DNA from: a virus
Strand: one strand, 5' to 3'
Length of the DNA: 64,000 nucleotides
Virus record (IMG/VR): IMGVR_UViG_3300035698_010959
Position numbers and translations under genes: made by a program. The notes beneath the pieces were generated by a model. The model was given only the letters and a program-made list of their open reading frames with translations. It did not search any database and was not told the DNA's origin. Shown in pieces: positions 2,345 to 64,000 of this stretch (positions are counted from its first letter, which is position 1; the number at the start of each line of letters is the position of its first letter).

Positions 2345-3100
2345 TTATGCCGCCGTTCCTCTTGTTATATAATTAGAATACATTTCATCTACTCTATTCA
2401 TATCTATTGGATTATCTTTATAATTTAATATTGCTGTTGCTATTGGGTTAGATATTGGTGGGGATTCATCTGTGCTAAGTTCGTTTCTTGATTCTGTACT
2501 TTTAAAGGAGGATATTAAGTTACTGTGGTTGTCTATTGACTTACCTACTGTTTTAAGTCCAGCATTTAATAGCACCCATAATGGTATTGCCAAGAGAGGA
2601 GATGCTATTGTTCTTCCTGTGAGTCTTACTCTTGACATTACATCTTTCTGTATTTTTTCACTTGAGTTAAGTAAACTACCTATTGACTTCCATTCTTTTC
2701 CTTTGGATGCCATTGTTGTTGTATCAGATGCTTTATCACCAAGATATTCATATATCTTACCCATTAGCGGTCTGAGCTTTCCTTGCTCTGTTATTGCTCT
2801 TGTAACAATGCGTGCTGCTGTTAGGTCTGCTATTGGGTCTGCTAGAGCAAAAGCTACTCCACCTAGTTTATTTTCCCAGTTATCTTCTAGTAGTAATGAG
2901 GCAGCACCAGCTGTTCCTGCTGCTAAATATCTAGCACCAAGTAAACTTCCTGCTCCTCTTGAGTATAGTCCTTTTAAACCAGGCATGTGACTAGTTGCTA
3001 CTGTACCTTCTAAGGCTCCAGCAGCAAGTGTAGCCATACCTACTCCAAAATATACTTTTGGGGCTATATTATTATCTTCTGTGGGTCTTGTGTTTTCCAT
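2345..3100 (-). CDS. Hypothetical Gly/Ala-rich protein with hydrophobic segments (possible virion/ejection protein)
   Basis: 251-aa ORF in operon orientation; hydrophobic stretches VYFGVGMATLAAGAL and PLLAIPLWVLL. Confidence 0.65.
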   Translation of the reverse strand: MENTRPTEDNNIAPKVYFGVGMATLAAGALEGTVATSHMPGLKGLYSRGAGSLLGARYLAAGTAGAASLLLEDNWENKLGGVAFALADPIADLTAARIVTRAITEQGKLRPLMGKIYEYLGDKASDTTTMASKGKEWKSIGSLLNSSEKIQKDVMSRVRLTGRTIASPLLAIPLWVLLNAGLKTVGKSIDNHSNLISSFKSTESRNELSTDESPPISNPIATAILNYKDNPIDMNRVDEMYSNYITRGTAA

Positions 3101-58808: not shown

Positions 58809-59109
58809 GTGTATTATGCGGCTTTTACTAGTTTTTTTGTAATTTTTTTATAGAGTATCTGATCAACAAGAAGATTTGGTAAAATCAGGCTCTCTCCACA
58901 AGAGAGTATGAATATACTTTCTTCACAAGAGAGTAAAATCAGGCTCTCTCCACTATATCTTCTAAATCCTCTCGACCTTATAGCTAACTAATTTTTTTGT
59001 AATTTTTTTTTCATAGAGTCTCCTGGTATATAGTTTGAGAGATAGGGGGGTATGTATCTTTAGAGCCCCACCCCTCTCTCAGACAAATAAAACAAAGGAG
59101 TATATGATA

Positions 59110-59553
59110 ATGAGTATTAAAAATGCAATCCAAGTAAATAGGCTAAGACGTGAGGCCAGAAAGATCTTAGATCTCAATGGTCTTTCACATGTCGAGCTAA
59201 CAACTGGTAGTTACTTTGTGTTTCACGTTTCTACTAAGGACACGACTCCATCTATAGAGCTACCTGGTAATGTGTCAAGTGTGTTATCTTTCCTGAAGAG
59301 TAATGGAGTAACTAAGACGTTGAAGGAAATTCTATATCATGAGATAGGACATGCAATAGACTTTAACATACGAGGATATGATGCACTGCATAAGGATATG
59401 GTAGAGATGCATTGCCTCTATAGCGGTATTGTGGAAAGATGTGGAGATGATGTGGCTGCTGGTCAAAGAGAATTAGAGAATCTCCCATTAGAAGCAACAG
59501 CAAATAGGATAGCGGCTGGTCTTATTAAGGAAGGTGGTGTGTATAAGGTATAG
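59110..59553 (+). CDS. HExxH zinc metallopeptidase-like protein (ImmA/IrrE-like motif spacing); start revised
   Basis: SD AAGGAG at 59095-59100; LYHEIGHAID...LEATANRIA. Confidence 0.7.
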   Translation: MSIKNAIQVNRLRREARKILDLNGLSHVELTTGSYFVFHVSTKDTTPSIELPGNVSSVLSFLKSNGVTKTLKEILYHEIGHAIDFNIRGYDALHKDMVEMHCLYSGIVERCGDDVAAGQRELENLPLEATANRIAAGLIKEGGVYKV

Positions 59554-59566
59554 CAATAGGGGATAA

Positions 59567-59624
59567 CATAGTCTCTATACACATGGGGATTAAACTCACT
59601 ATCTCTCGGTCTAGAAATAAGGAG
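59567..59624 (+). repeat. Conserved structured leader element, copy 1
   Basis: CATAG-TCTCTAT-ACAC-ATGGGGA-TTAAAC...TCTCGGTCT-AGAAATAAGGAG. Confidence 0.85.
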
Positions 59625-59632
59625 TAACTTGA

Positions 59633-59863
59633 ATGTTTAAGTATAATAAGCTGAATGTAGGGCTGTTCATAGGGTTGACGATTGCTGCTGTATGTGGTGG
59701 CATATCGAGATTACCTGTTAATGCTAATGAGTGGCTTATTCTAAGCGCTCTATGGGGAAGCACGTTCTTCCTCGTGTTTCGTAGATGGTCAACAAAGAAG
59801 TCTTGGTCTGTAGACATGGTAGTAAGATGTGTCTGCAACTACTGGAGGGCAAGCAACAACTAA
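59633..59863 (+). CDS. Small membrane protein
   Basis: Two hydrophobic helices; SD AAGGAG. Confidence 0.65.
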   Translation: MFKYNKLNVGLFIGLTIAAVCGGISRLPVNANEWLILSALWGSTFFLVFRRWSTKKSWSVDMVVRCVCNYWRASNN

Positions 59864-59871
59864 CTAGTATC

Positions 59872-59901
59872 TAACTCTTCTCGGTCTGTATGAATAAGGA
59901 G
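59872..59901 (+). repeat. Leader element, partial copy (3' module only)
   Basis: TAACTCTTCTCGGTCT...AAGGAG. Confidence 0.75.
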
Positions 59902-59908
59902 ATATCAA

Positions 59909-60160
59909 ATGTTTGGATGGATGGTAGTAATAGGTCTCGCTTCTGTTCTCACACTTACAGTGCTGAGAATGTTTCTTCCTCCTAGACCTAGATGGGGGCG
60001 AGTAGGGCTAGCAGTAGTTCTCTTCTGGGGACTGATAGTAGCTATCAATGTTGTAGCAGAACAAGCTGCTAGTCCTTTGCTGGATGCTGGGGATGACCTT
60101 GCTAGACGAACAGCTGCTACTAATCTAGTAATTGAAGAGAACAATTATCTCAGTTACTGA
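59909..60160 (+). CDS. Small membrane protein
   Basis: Two TM helices; SD AAGGAG. Confidence 0.7.
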   Translation: MFGWMVVIGLASVLTLTVLRMFLPPRPRWGRVGLAVVLFWGLIVAINVVAEQAASPLLDAGDDLARRTAATNLVIEENNYLSY

Positions 60161-60178
60161 TGTGTAGCATCTACTATG

Positions 60179-60235
60179 CGAAGCTCTATGTTTATAGAGT
60201 TAAACGTTTTTCTTCTTCTCGGTCTAGATTGGAGG
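60179..60235 (+). repeat. Conserved structured leader element
   Basis: CGAAG-CTCTATG-TT-TATAGAG-TTAAAC...TCTCGGTCT-AGATTGGAGG. Confidence 0.85.
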
Positions 60236-60246
60236 ATAAATGGATT

Positions 60247-60468
60247 ATGAGTGCCTGCATTCGGTTTTCTGGTAACGCAGTTGGAGGCTATATCCCAGCA
60301 TCTAATTTGGCAGCTATTGTATCTGCTGCTGTTCTTCAAGGAATTAATCCTGTAAAAGGGATTAAGAGTCTCTTTGGATCACAGGCAAGAGAAACACTTG
60401 CTTCTGCTCTTCTAGAGGCTGCTCCTAGTGAGAAAACCATACTAGATAGTTTGATTGGCAAACTCTAG
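60247..60468 (+). CDS. Hypothetical protein (start revised to MSACIRF)
   Basis: The track ORF begins at 60160 but spans the leader element; SD GGAGG at 60231-60235. Confidence 0.6.
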   Translation: MSACIRFSGNAVGGYIPASNLAAIVSAAVLQGINPVKGIKSLFGSQARETLASALLEAAPSEKTILDSLIGKL

Positions 60469-60484
60469 TGCTACTATTGATTAA

Positions 60485-60540
60485 CGAAGTTTCTGTATAT
60501 GGGGATTAAACTTTTTACTTCTCGGTCTAGAAACTGGAGG
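60485..60540 (+). repeat. Conserved structured leader element
   Basis: CGAAG-TTTCTGT-AT-ATGGGGA-TTAAAC...TCTCGGTCT-AGAAACTGGAGG. Confidence 0.85.
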
Positions 60541-60545
60541 ACAAT

Positions 60546-60797
60546 ATGAAAGCGTTGGTTTTGATAATAATAATAGCAGTGTGTGTAATAATACTTATAC
60601 ACGAAGGCAAACCCGAACAGAAATGTTCTCAAAATAGAGCAAACTTTGCAGCAGAGACAACAGCAACTGCTGCTCCAATGAGATCAATAGTAGATGTGAT
60701 GTATGAACAAAGACGAGTTGGCGAGTGCGCTCGAAGAGAGTTAAAGGAGAAAAGAATAGCTGAGAAAAAAGCTCTTAAGGAAAAACGTGGGTATTAA
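60546..60797 (+). CDS. Small protein with an N-terminal membrane anchor
   Basis: MKALVLIIIIAVCVIILI; SD GGAGG. Confidence 0.7.
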   Translation: MKALVLIIIIAVCVIILIHEGKPEQKCSQNRANFAAETTATAAPMRSIVDVMYEQRRVGECARRELKEKRIAEKKALKEKRGY

Positions 60798-60800
60798 CTA

Positions 60801-60866
60801 CGAAGTTCTATACTTGTATAGAATTAAACTCTACTCTTCTCGTTTTCCTATCTCGAAAGGATAGAA
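60801..60866 (+). repeat. Conserved structured leader element (subtype shared with 62267)
   Basis: CGAAG-TTCTATAC-TT-GTATAGAA-TTAAAC...TCTCGTTTT-CCTATCTCGAAAGGATAG. Confidence 0.85.
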
Positions 60867-60874
60867 TGTAGATC

Positions 60875-61459
60875 ATGCTAAGACAAACTAATGTATTTGT
60901 AACCGGAAACAGCACAAAGGAAACATGTGATGGTGGCTGTAAGTCTAAGATACTGGAGTGTGTGAACATGGAATTAGAAACCATATACCTCTCTCCTTGT
61001 CAGTTCAAAGGGAACAAGACTAAATGTTCTCATGGTTCTGAGGAATATATTGGTGTTCCTTTCTCTGAGATTACTAAGGCTCTTGCTGTTAAGAGATCTG
61101 AAATCACAACTGGGCTGTTTGATGTTCAGGCGGTCAAAGCAAATATGGAGAGCAATCCTGTGGTATCTGCTGTTGCTTTGGCTAAGGCAATTAAAGCCAA
61201 GGGTATCTATGATGCTGCTAAAGCATTTTGTAATACTACTGTAACATCTACTAAGAAAGCAATAGGCGTTTCTATCCCTGTTTGTAAGAGAATAAGGGCA
61301 GGAAGCAAGGATGCTACGCTTATAGGCAGCAAGGCCGCTGTTGGGGCTGCTATGGCCGGTTATGGGGCATCTAAGCCTATAGCTAACAAGGCTCTGGTTG
61401 CTGCTAAGGGGTTGCTGAAGCTGCGGCTCAAGGTTATTAAGGTCGATCAATCTAAATAG
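60875..61459 (+). CDS. Hypothetical Lys/Ala-rich protein with an N-terminal Cys cluster
   Basis: 194 aa. Confidence 0.65.
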   Translation: MLRQTNVFVTGNSTKETCDGGCKSKILECVNMELETIYLSPCQFKGNKTKCSHGSEEYIGVPFSEITKALAVKRSEITTGLFDVQAVKANMESNPVVSAVALAKAIKAKGIYDAAKAFCNTTVTSTKKAIGVSIPVCKRIRAGSKDATLIGSKAAVGAAMAGYGASKPIANKALVAAKGLLKLRLKVIKVDQSK

Positions 61460-61487
61460 AGGTATTACTCTTGTATTGTTGTGACTT

Positions 61488-61552
61488 CATAGGTCTATCT
61501 TTATAGACTTAAACGACTCTTTTCTTTTCTCGGTCTGTATATGAAAGTGAGA
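61488..61552 (+). repeat. Conserved structured leader element
   Basis: CATAG-GTCTAT-CTTT-ATAGAC-TTAAAC...TCTCGGTCT. Confidence 0.85.
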
Positions 61553-61562
61553 ATGTATTGTA

Positions 61563-61769
61563 ATGTATAGTAGTTATGCTCGTAAAGATAGGCATCATCT
61601 CTGTCTTATGTGTGGGGCAGATCTCGACTTTGGTAGTCACTATTCAAATTGTGACTACAACAACAAAGAAAACCTGAGCCTGAAAAGGAAATTCTCTGCT
61701 TCTTACCTTCGTGGTCTAGAAGAAAGCATACTATCAAGAAACAGTAGAAAGGATAAAGTAAGTATTTAG
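61563..61769 (+). CDS. Small Zn-finger protein
   Basis: CLMCG...H...C. Confidence 0.6.
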   Translation: MYSSYARKDRHHLCLMCGADLDFGSHYSNCDYNNKENLSLKRKFSASYLRGLEESILSRNSRKDKVSI

Positions 61770-61789
61770 GTAACTACTAATAGTAATTG

Positions 61790-61819
61790 GTCCTGAGTAC
61801 GACGGTAAAGCCTGCTCAG
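61790..61819 (+). ncRNA. Predicted compact H-type pseudoknot abutting an SD
   Basis: GTC/GAC stem; the loop CTGAGTA pairs with downstream TGCTCAG. Confidence 0.45.
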
Positions 61820-61881
61820 AAGGAAATAACATGAAACAACAGAACTACACTGAGATTGAGATTTAGGAGGACAGTATTCTT

Positions 61882-62061
61882 ATGGGTATCTGTGTTGTAT
61901 GTGGTAAGAAAGTAGATATAGAGACTTCTGATGCTAGAAGTGCTTTTATTCTACTGACTGAGCGTGCTGATTATTATGGCATGGAGGCTCTTACTGAGAA
62001 CCAACAGGTTCTTGTTGAGGGTAAGGTTTGTAGCATGAAATGCTATCATGAGTTAGCATAG
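61882..62061 (+). CDS. 59-aa Zn-finger protein (not in ORF track)
   Basis: SD AGGAGG; MGICVVCGKK...VCSMKCYHELA. Confidence 0.7.
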   Translation: MGICVVCGKKVDIETSDARSAFILLTERADYYGMEALTENQQVLVEGKVCSMKCYHELA

Positions 62062-62080
62062 ACATGCGTGTGTGTTTTTT

Positions 62081-62132
62081 CGAAGTCACTATATTTAGTG
62101 ATTAAACTCTTTACCTTTCGTTCTTAGAAAGG
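62081..62132 (+). repeat. Conserved structured leader element
   Basis: CGAAG-TCACTA-TATT-TAGTGA-TTAAAC...CCTTTCGTTCTTAGAAAGG. Confidence 0.85.
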
Positions 62133-62139
62133 AAAACAA

Positions 62140-62238
62140 ATGTATATCAAGACAGAAGAACTTTACTTGTCTCCACTTGTTAAGTGGCTGATTCGACTTG
62201 CTGAGGTAGTGACATATGCTACTTCTAGACGCGCATAA
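62140..62238 (+). CDS. 32-aa small protein (not in ORF track)
   Basis: SD GAAAGGA; MYIKTEELYLSPLVKWLIRLAEVVTYATSRRA; has its own leader element. Confidence 0.6.
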   Translation: MYIKTEELYLSPLVKWLIRLAEVVTYATSRRA

Positions 62239-62266
62239 GAAGAAGATGGTCTCTTTTAACTATTCA

Positions 62267-62335
62267 CGAAGTTCTATATCTTTATAGGATTAAACTCTTT
62301 TCTTTCTCGTTTTCCTATCTTGCGAAAGGATAGAA
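62267..62335 (+). repeat. Conserved structured leader element (subtype shared with 60801)
   Basis: CGAAG-TTCTATA-TCTT-TATAGGA-TTAAAC...TCTCGTTTT-CCTATCTTGCGAAAGGATAG. Confidence 0.85.
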
Positions 62336-62341
62336 CAAATC

Positions 62342-62779
62342 ATGCATACAGTAAACGCTAATAACAGCAATTACGAGGAACTTGAATCTGGCAATTGGAT
62401 GAATACTCTTTGTGAAGGCATTCATCAGGCAGTTCAAGGTGACATCCCTGTTAGTCGAACAGTTACTATTCCCAAAGTTACAAATGGTAAGAACTTCTTG
62501 CCCAAGGTAACAATAGACTACACATCAGATAGAAGCCTGCATGCTCAGGTATTCTATTCCAACGTGTTTAAGGGAACAACTGCTGATAAGATGGTTGTTA
62601 TTTCAGCACAACAGAATGACATTCGAAAGTCTAATAATCCTGGAGCAACATTCAGGGATACAGTCTTTACTATAACCATCTTCAAGGATGGTAAGCCTGT
62701 TAAGGGCTATGACCGACGCCGAGGTATGAGAAAGTATTCCTCTGATAAGAGAACTTTCTTATTTGCTGATAAGAGATAG
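62342..62779 (+). CDS. Hypothetical protein
   Basis: 145 aa, SD AAAGGA. Confidence 0.7.
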   Translation: MHTVNANNSNYEELESGNWMNTLCEGIHQAVQGDIPVSRTVTIPKVTNGKNFLPKVTIDYTSDRSLHAQVFYSNVFKGTTADKMVVISAQQNDIRKSNNPGATFRDTVFTITIFKDGKPVKGYDRRRGMRKYSSDKRTFLFADKR

Positions 62780-62802
62780 TAGTAGCTGTTGTCATCTTTC
62801 TA

Positions 62803-62861
62803 CATAGGTCTACTTCAATTAGACTTAAACTCTATACTCTTCTCGGTCTACAACGAAAGGA
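62803..62861 (+). repeat. Conserved structured leader element
   Basis: CATAG-GTCTA-CTTCAAT-TAGAC-TTAAAC...TCTCGGTCT-ACAACGAAAGGA. Confidence 0.85.
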
Positions 62862-62874
62862 TACGTCGTTACTG

Positions 62875-63135
62875 ATGTATTGCAAAGACTGTGGGATTCT
62901 AACCAAAGATGAGGCTAAATACTGTTCTATATGTAAGAAACGTATAGATGACAAGCTTATAGAAGACTTTGATAAGGAATTCGCCAAAAACATAAAGACA
63001 GTAAAGAAATGTTGTGGGTGTCTTGCTGTCATAGTAGGTGTAGTTCTTTTGGTTATTGTTGTTATCTGGCAGGTGGATGCTGATAGAACAATTGTTGTTC
63101 CTGAAAGAGATATAACAATACTTCGTGGCTGGTAG
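62875..63135 (+). CDS. Zinc-ribbon membrane protein
   Basis: MYCKDCG...AKYCSIC plus a C-terminal TM helix. Confidence 0.75.
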   Translation: MYCKDCGILTKDEAKYCSICKKRIDDKLIEDFDKEFAKNIKTVKKCCGCLAVIVGVVLLVIVVIWQVDADRTIVVPERDITILRGW

Positions 63136-63167
63136 TAAAAGAAGGAGGCGATTTATCTATAGAGAAC

Positions 63168-63187
63168 AGGTAACGAAGTTACCTTTT
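63168..63187 (+). terminator. Possible intrinsic terminator
   Basis: AGGTAAC-GAA-GTTACCT followed by TTT. Confidence 0.45.
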
Positions 63188-63251
63188 ACACAAAGAACAA
63201 AGTTCTTTGGTTACGTTTGTATTCTAGTTTCTATTGGTACTGTTGTATATG

Positions 63252-63275
63252 GAGAAGATTTAAATAAATCTTCTT
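63252..63275 (+). repeat. Palindromic repeat family copy with a different spacer
   Basis: GAGAAGATTT-AAAT-AAATCTTCTT. Confidence 0.75.
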
Positions 63276-63410
63276 ATGGGATGCTATTGTACTAGTGTGT
63301 AAGTACGTGTCTGTATTTGTACGCGAAGTGCGGATACTTAATTGATTGATTGATTGATAATTTGTAAGTCTGTAACTATTCCCGGTCTAGAATAATGGAG
63401 AACAACTATC

Positions 63411-63719
63411 ATGATGACAATAGATGAAAGATATCTAACATCTAATACAATGAAGGCTATAGTGCATGATATGCATGAAGCAGCATCTAGTGATCTTGAA
63501 TCTCATAGACATAGAATTAACAATCTTAGTTCTGAGGTTGTTGAGCTTAATCGTAGGCTTAGTAAAGCAAAGGAGATAATATCTGGGCTAGAGCAAGTTG
63601 CTGATAAGTTGAAGGCTATGATGTATGAGAATAATAGACATTCAGATCAGCAGAGACGACTAGAAGCATGTGAAAGTCAACTTGATGTGCTTATGACTAC
63701 AGTTAATGATAATCTGTAG
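63411..63719 (+). CDS. Coiled-coil hypothetical protein
   Basis: 102 aa; preceded by CCCGGTCT and SD GGAG. Confidence 0.7.
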   Translation: MMTIDERYLTSNTMKAIVHDMHEAASSDLESHRHRINNLSSEVVELNRRLSKAKEIISGLEQVADKLKAMMYENNRHSDQQRRLEACESQLDVLMTTVNDNL

Positions 63720-63810
63720 TTACTAGCATTCACTCAGTTGTAAGTGTGTCTGTAACTTTTTTAAGTCTGTAGTTTCTCGGTCTTTTTTACAAAGGAGAAC
63801 AATGTAAACT

Positions 63811-64000
63811 ATGGCACATCAAAAAGATTTAGTAAAACCTTCTCATCTTAGATTGGAATTGGTTGTAGAAGGTAAGAATGTAAAAGATATATGTGATGGA
63901 TTGGCTGATGTTATTTCTTGTGTTGTTGGAGATAACAACATGTCTGGTGATGAAGAAGCATATTTCTTTGATTATGATCTACGTATATGTAGATCAACAA
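63811..64000 (+). CDS. Hypothetical protein, truncated by the window end
   Basis: MAHQKDLVKPSHLRLELVVEG... open to the end; preceded by TCTCGGTCT and AAAGGAG. Confidence 0.65.
   Translation, partial: MAHQKDLVKPSHLRLELVVEGKNVKDICDGLADVISCVVGDNNMSGDEEAYFFDYDLRICRST

Follow-up and report, generated by a model that had tools for sequence, protein, structure and literature searches.

Within the 64,000 nt stretch of virus record IMGVR_UViG_3300035698_010959 analysed here (the window), a conserved element of about 11 nt, y-TTCTCGGTCT, recurs in a single orientation ahead of the Shine-Dalgarno (SD) sequences of a block of small genes at 59.1–64.0 kb. We regard this element (module 2) as a candidate promoter or initiator core for an RNA polymerase predicted to be encoded by the phage itself, with its invariant C-G as −1/+1, and a hairpin followed by TTAAAC that lies upstream of many copies (module 1) as a candidate terminator or 3′-end element; we give this reading a probability of roughly 0.45. 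Whatever its mode of action, the distribution of the motif supports a genuine cis-element, under selection, by which small genes are marked as a jointly regulated set. The phage is uncultured. Its window is part of a ~226-kb contig present in many samples, of which 73.7 kb were readable; the sequence continuing beyond the window end is referred to as L120, position 10620 of which is equivalent to window position 64030.

Sequence and distribution of the motif

When the 12 copies were aligned on the motif, C4 and G5 were invariant in all of them (2.4 bits each), and the conserved block was flanked by a pyrimidine-rich stretch on its 5′ side and by the purine-rich SD on its 3′ side. Exact CTCGGTCT has 7 copies in the window, a number reached in none of 100 shuffles, against an expectation of 0.59, and all of them are + strand copies located at 59.6–63.8 kb. 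For the degenerate form TYTCGKTYT, 11 matches in 64 kb compare with 3.6 expected, and 10 of the 11 fall inside the 4.2-kb block. Eleven sites had been listed in an initial annotation of this DNA, and all were found where it placed them (Table 1); without exception they are intergenic and on the + strand. A twelfth full copy, 3.8 kb beyond the window end (L120:14346), carries a C-to-T change at position 2 in some strains. Each of the 12 stands in the same orientation ahead of a small gene, and the 9-mer is exact in 8.

The motif had been described as lying just upstream of the SD, and this holds for every copy: 3–11 nt separate the end of the motif from the SD, and 15–28 nt separate it from the ATG. 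Also borne out are the CTATC/GATAG stems of both TCTCGTTTT copies and the separability of the two modules, since module 1 is absent at the copies at 59879, 63381 and 63775. Where both are present, the distance between TTAAAC and the motif varies from 8 to 13 nt; therefore, the two modules are not rigidly coupled. A scan of IMG/VR with the pattern TTAAAC-N(7-14)-TCTCGGTCT returned single chance matches only.

A phage-encoded RNA polymerase

A six-frame search for the catalytic DxDGD motif, prompted by the paper on Bacillus phage 0305phi8-36 (PMC2147016), gave only one match in the 73.7 kb, in a 541-amino-acid protein (L120:16809-18434) whose gene lies 6.8 kb downstream of the block. The protein carries the sequence GDNDGDTLNFH, and GDxDGD is invariant across its family. 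Compared with PDB sequences, the family profile matched RNA polymerase largest subunits only, aligned at NADFDGDEMN, with E values near 1 that are weak alone. The Foldseek matches of its AlphaFold model (mean predicted local distance difference test score 75) were all β′ chains, including those of the AR9 and phiKZ non-virion polymerases (E 1e-7), and the model of the adjacent 597-amino-acid protein (L120:18439-20232) matched β/Rpb2 (E 3e-12). On these profile and model comparisons, the phage encodes a predicted minimal two-barrel polymerase that is split into a β′-like and a β-like gene.

Neither half was detected with Pfam or PHROGs. In the relative L128 the β′-like and β-like halves are fused into one 938-amino-acid protein, and the relative G001 has one adjacent β′-like/β-like gene pair; Pfam polymerase and sigma models gave no match in G001, where profile and fold comparison alone revealed the polymerase. 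A β′-like gene with 42% identity was present in the sample that yielded a further relative, L134. No homologue of the 0305phi8-36 orf99 polymerase was found in the accessible sequence.

The upstream hairpin module

Module 1 follows the pattern C(GA/AT)AG-hairpin-TTAAAC. For each of the 8 copies, folding is more stable as + strand RNA than as the reverse complement, and G-U pairs account for 14 of the 57 pairs; therefore, the module would be expected to function as RNA or on the non-template strand. The hairpin stems, like the flanks of the motif, have diverged by covariation. Two other identities were considered for this module. A template-strand hairpin promoter of the N4 type was disfavoured, as the G-U pairs become A-C mismatches on the template strand, and an integron attC site (GTTRRRY) was rejected, with the G present in one copy only and TTAAAC located outside the stem.

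Folding of the leaders

The initial annotation placed the motif in the loop of a hairpin that covers or abuts the SD and proposed a coordinated translational switch. Predicted minimum free energies of the leaders range from −4 to −11 kcal/mol with a mean z of about −0.8, and only 2 of 11 fall below −2. Upon shuffling of the 5′ part (12 copies), the probability that the SD is unpaired rose from 0.20 in the native sequences to 0.37; accessibility was below the shuffle mean in 11 of 12 copies and individually significant in only 1, and the Fisher combination of the 12 p-values is about 0.02. Compared with 14 non-motif + strand genes of the same phage, the SDs of motif leaders were also less accessible (0.24 versus 0.60 unpaired; Mann-Whitney p=0.0007), and pyrimidine-rich composition accounts for most of this difference.

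The hairpin is supported only in part: predicted masking of the SD exceeds that in shuffles and that at other genes of the phage, but its folds are weak and are not conserved in L134, where the SDs of the motif leaders were 0.59 unpaired versus 0.49 in shuffles, i.e. were not masked. Because L134 shares the motif without the masking, we consider the SD hairpin to be at most a lineage-specific extra and not the defining feature of the element. Display in a loop applies to a subset, mainly the TCT...AGA copies, but the motif as a whole is only ~55% unpaired. RNAalifold found no consensus structure on the aligned cassettes, for which the alignment was poor, and there was no match in Rfam. A small RNA carrying AGACCGAGA had been suggested as the key to the switch; neither such an RNA nor a good duplex partner, besides the sites' own antisense strand, was found in 73.7 kb of the ~226 kb. 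What remains of the switch is a co-regulated cis-element, and because the phage encodes a predicted two-barrel RNA polymerase a short distance downstream, a promoter is at least as likely.

Conservation in related phages

In L134, a Logan contig with ~50% identity in the flanking proteins, the block lies in the same position and contains no gene homologous to those of the window block. The sequence TTCTCGG occurs there 5 times against 0.88 expected, always on the + strand, and 4 of the 5 copies sit 3–6 nt ahead of an SD. Elements consisting of a CATAG-hairpin and GGGATTAAAT are also present, and one motif copy is located directly 3′ of a strong terminator-like hairpin with a U-rich tract. The relative L142 has a single hairpin-TCTCGATTT-SD unit. 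Motif enrichment was found in none of L126, L136, L142, G001 and 0305phi8-36, and ACTATAGSGAG, a motif that occurs before genes in G001, is not enriched either. Close relatives of the neighbouring proteins were found neither in IMG/VR nor in a first metagenome scan. As regards cassettes and indel borders, strains differ by a single-nucleotide polymorphism (SNP) in the block, and more distant relatives carry different cargo.

Several features of these relatives were recorded in addition. L126 (287-6152, − strand; 60% identity in a neighbouring protein) has five block genes in common with the window and a different leader pattern, in which a GC-richer hairpin, often with CCTCC/GGAGG arms, is followed 8–10 nt on by ATCT(T/A)A and GGAGGA. 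In L142 the palindrome GTTACA-NN-TGTAAC, which looks like an operator, is repeated upstream of genes at 3045, 5058, 7218, 16016 and 19810. Six near-identical strains show 1 SNP in the 5-kb block (59110-64000) compared with ~22 SNPs plus indels in the next 9 kb (L120:10620-20309).

Organization of the block and neighbouring signals

By sequence comparison, the phage is a jumbo myophage with a distant relationship to Bacillus phage 0305phi8-36, its nearest cultured relatives being the Bacillus jumbo phages of the 0305phi8-36 group (26–31% protein identity). Because the homologous neighbourhood in 0305phi8-36 adjoins a 6.5-kb terminal repeat, the small-gene block is probably an end-proximal early region. 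On one side it borders a divergent intergenic region of 450 bp, and on the other a repeat-rich non-coding region of 1.2 kb. Spacers between its genes measure 45–275 nt; neighbouring + strand genes abut or overlap. No sigma-70/sigmaA-type promoters were found within the cassettes of the block, and elsewhere in the window there are genes with TATAAT-type boxes or the TGGTAAAAT palindrome. No recognisable RNA-binding protein is encoded in the block, and a strong terminator follows its last gene (window-equivalent 64.06 kb).

Host-type readings of the cassette itself were also tried. Taking TTAAAC or TAGANT as sigma-70 boxes was rejected on account of the spacing, of missing key bases and of a start that would fall after the SD, and a site for an extracytoplasmic function (ECF) sigma factor (AAC...CGT) was rejected because its spacing is not fixed (11–16 nt).

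A 26-nt palindrome family, ATGAGAAGATTTGGTAAAATCTTCTT, with at least 7 occurrences, contains the extended −10-like TGGTAAAAT and, judged by its sequence, looks like a promoter overlapped by the operator of a dimeric regulator; in relatives the family is not kept. A different sequence, GCCCCACCCC, occurs at 59065-59074, 30–45 nt ahead of the first gene of the block, often with a TATATT-like box 5′ of it. It is kept in every one of the four relatives with the block (L126, L134 and L136 among them), including at a protein identity of 38%, and the early transcript may begin there. Within the block, the spacer at 61770-61881 is the sole long one without either module and holds an 11-codon open reading frame (ORF); the gene after it encodes a 59-amino-acid zinc finger with homologues in L126 and L128. 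Directly after the block, the 1.2-kb non-coding region (L120:10620-11833, window-equivalent 64030-65243) contains several terminators, repeats and (GT)n tracts as well as strain-specific indels, such as a 28-nt insertion in one strain, and might represent an end of the genome, an origin or a small-RNA locus.

Table 1. Positions of the motif copies and of other features in and beyond the window
Feature	Position	Strand	Context
Promoter-like AGAAGATTTGGTAAAAT, extended −10 TGGTAAAAT at 58877	58868..58885	+	Upstream of block; member of 26-nt palindrome family
Module 1, hairpin and TTAAAC	59571..59595	+	TTAAAC of further copies at 60200, 60506, 60824, 61509, 62102, 62290, 62825
Motif TCTCGGTCT	59604..59612	+	Before gene 59633-59863
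Motif TCTCGGTCT	59879..59887	+	Before gene 59909-60160; no upstream hairpin module
Motif TCTCGGTCT	60217..60225	+	Before gene with start at 60241/60247
Motif TCTCGGTCT	60520..60528	+	Before gene 60546-60797
Variant TCTCGTTTT	60838..60846	+	Before gene 60875-61459; followed by CTATC/GATAG stem over SD
Motif TCTCGGTCT	61528..61536	+	Before gene 61563-61769
Variant TTTCGTTCT	62116..62124	+	Before 32-codon ORF 62140-62238; CCTTTC/GAAAGG stem; strongest SD masking of the set
Variant TCTCGTTTT	62305..62313	+	Before gene 62342-62779
Motif TCTCGGTCT	62841..62849	+	Before gene 62875-63135
Variant TCCCGGTCT; (T)CCCGGTCT at 63380/63381	63380..63388	+	Before gene 63411-63719; no hairpin module
Motif TCTCGGTCT	63775..63783	+	Before gene with start at 63811; no hairpin module
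Two terminator-like hairpins	63168..63209	+	Inside block, after gene 62875-63135
Palindrome/promoter-like family variant GGAGAAGATTTAAATAAATCTTCTT	63251..63275	+	3′ of the two terminator-like hairpins
Palindrome family ATGAGAAGATTTGGTAAAATCTTCTT	58868-58885; 58028, 57487, 55792; 64216, 64438; 65765	+; −; +; −	The last two groups lie beyond the window
Predicted β′-like and β-like polymerase genes	L120:16809-18434 and L120:18439-20232 (window-equivalent 70219-73642)		Beyond window end

Discussion

We favour a promoter for module 2 because the phage appears to encode its own minimal RNA polymerase and because the TCTCGGTCT cassettes are the sole repeated, oriented, gene-proximal motif unlike host promoters in the readable third of the contig. 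A candidate cognate non-host polymerase is thus accompanied by a one-orientation motif upstream of genes that have no host-type promoters, and the motif is kept in L134, whose cargo genes are unrelated. In the mechanism that we propose, the intergenic cassettes would be composite transcription signals for the phage polymerase. The y-TTCTCGGTCT element would serve as the promoter or initiator core, with the invariant C-G probably at −1/+1 or, alternatively, with the start at the purine right after the motif, and each small gene would be expressed from a short leader of ~15–30 nt that includes its SD. Where present, module 1 would form an RNA hairpin that ends or stabilises the upstream transcript, and the pyrimidine tract 5′ of the motif would mask the SD in read-through transcripts only. 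From the sequence we infer that a phage polymerase reads this motif, where its transcripts start and end, and when they are expressed. A fuller version holds that the modules are the promoter and the sequence-specific terminator of a previously undescribed split minimal polymerase in a jumbo phage of a Firmicutes-type host, and that a second layer, in which the SD is free in motif-started transcripts and masked in read-through ones, ties translation of the small genes to their own promoter; this version we consider distinctly doubtful.

A number of observations weigh against a promoter. In GC content the motif exceeds the sequence around it, an unusual property for a region that has to melt, and it lies close to the SD. 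A start 6–7 nt past the conserved element, where the early promoters of AR9 and phiKZ have it, would clip the SD in several copies; therefore, on this reading the start must be in, or right after, the motif. There is no copy before the first gene of the block or before the polymerase genes, and in the readable 74 kb the motif serves small genes only, a small regulon for a dedicated polymerase. The polymerase-bearing relatives G001, L136 and L142 are not enriched for it. Finally, the promoter-like site at 58877 and the strong terminators at 63.2 kb and window-equivalent 64.06 kb would fit one or two host-transcribed operons in which the motif is intercistronic RNA.

The closeness to the SD, the GC content, the lack of a copy before the first gene and these host-type signals support the main alternative, namely that the element acts in RNA, which we regard as possible though less likely than the promoter. 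The host polymerase would make one or two polycistronic early mRNAs, and UUCUCGGUCU by the SD would be an operator for a sequence-specific protein or endoribonuclease that either co-regulates translation or processes the transcript into units with the module-1 hairpin at their 3′ ends. The promoter-like TGGTAAAAT is found upstream of the block and not in the cassettes, a strong terminator comes after the last gene, and the first cistron has no motif; the copies, 3–11 nt from the SD, are all within a ribosome footprint. The G-U pairs of module 1, which function in + strand RNA only, and the excess of SD masking over shuffles and other genes point the same way, and the start-associated sequences of Cluster K mycobacteriophages (PMC3203893) provide an analogue. 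Yet the masking is weak and is missing in L134, which keeps the motif; the limited unpairing of the motif, the failure to find a complementary RNA in the 73.7 kb or a recognisable RNA-binding protein in the block, and the lack of an Rfam match also speak against it, as do a recurrent G6-to-T change that is not wobble-compatible and the L134 copy directly 3′ of a terminator-like hairpin.

At the DNA level, an asymmetric operator of the stoperator type could let a phage protein block or time transcription through the early block, for example in early shut-off. Many asymmetric copies in one orientation and in the short intergenic spaces of one region are what such a system would present, with a precedent in the stoperators of Cluster A mycobacteriophages, which are contrasted with start-associated sequences in PMC3203893. 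A roadblock, however, needs neither a strict hairpin-motif-SD order nor closeness to the SD, no candidate DNA-binding protein was identified, and a palindromic operator-like family is already present in the phage as a separate element, so that we hold this explanation to be very unlikely. The initial annotation also raised a common crossover core for the shuffling of cassettes. On this reading the motif would be only a linker that gene conversion and shuffling preserve, without any sequence-specific part in regulation. In its favour, L134 keeps the motif with all cargo genes different, the window phage and L126 do not have their genes in the same order, and such shuffling is mediated in T4-like phages by PeSL (promoter early stem-loop) cassettes (PMC2839356, PMC4122927). 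But the exact 9-mer has persisted in two thirds of the copies while flanks and hairpin stems diverged by covariation, the core survives at ~50% protein identity, and PeSLs are functional promoter-terminator units, for which shuffling is a consequence and not the function. Here too, shared regulatory cassettes more likely give rise to shuffling as a by-product, and a mere crossover core seems to us highly improbable.

Very few of the small two-barrel phage RNA polymerases have a known promoter specificity, and for YonO it had yet to be determined in 2017 (PMC5467207). In the present phage a candidate enzyme, an 11-nt putative recognition motif and a putative terminator element all lie within 12 kb; therefore, their pairing is directly testable by in vitro transcription. 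If confirmed, the promoter reading would show how genes are divided between a phage's own and the host polymerase in a jumbo phage of a Gram-positive-type host, and would provide a compact orthogonal transcription unit. Should the element instead be an RNA operator, it would represent an uncommon case of a phage translational operator that serves a whole regulon.

Comparison with known systems

Among systems in which a motif is repeated before small genes, the start-associated sequences (SAS) and extended start-associated sequences (ESAS) of Cluster K (PMC3203893) resemble the present one in having an asymmetric, one-orientation motif before start codons, with SAS at 11–19 non-structural genes and an upstream inverted repeat at a subset. 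The SAS, however, includes the SD and lies 3–7 bp from the start codon, whereas the motif here is upstream of the SD and 15–28 nt from the ATG, and ESAS repeats do not covary as RNA, unlike the hairpins here, which do and contain G-U pairs. PeSL cassettes of T4-like phages (PMC2839356, PMC4122927) likewise place a stem-loop and a start signal before small variable genes in plastic regions, with cargo that differs among relatives, but their promoters are sigma-70-like (TTGACA-N17-TATAAT or close) and no cassette here has a −35/−10 match.

Phage-specific promoters are used by AR9 and phiKZ, and the G of the phiKZ late motif TATG is the start (PMC5312081). A short consensus for β/β′-like phage polymerases is thus a shared feature, and the start-centred TATG is comparable to what we propose for TCTC-G. 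In contrast to our case, the early motifs of AR9 and phiKZ are long, AT-rich and 6 nt upstream of the start, and these phages have two multisubunit polymerases and do not use the host polymerase. Bacillus phage 0305phi8-36, of the closest cultured relative group, encodes a non-canonical polymerase and has 21-bp candidates for phage-specific promoters (PMC2147016); as in the window, a repeated motif occupies promoter-sized gaps among small monocistronic genes near a genome end, but its polymerase, orf99, is of the QDE-1/RNA-dependent RNA polymerase type, and TTCTCGG is not enriched in its genome.

In Thermus phage P23-45, which has two-barrel polymerases, conserved promoter motifs precede many pre-early and early genes close to one end of the genome, transcript ends carry a separate conserved terminator motif of 26 nt, and transcription of late genes falls to the host polymerase (bioRxiv 10.1101/2022.12.01.518664). 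The sequences are unrelated, the polymerase here is split into two genes and its candidate motif, with starts and ends predicted from sequence, abuts the SD. As a functional precedent P23-45 is nevertheless close, with a small phage two-barrel polymerase, motifs before many short genes near one genome end, a second motif that in P23-45 marks the ends of transcripts, and late genes that would likewise be left to the host enzyme.

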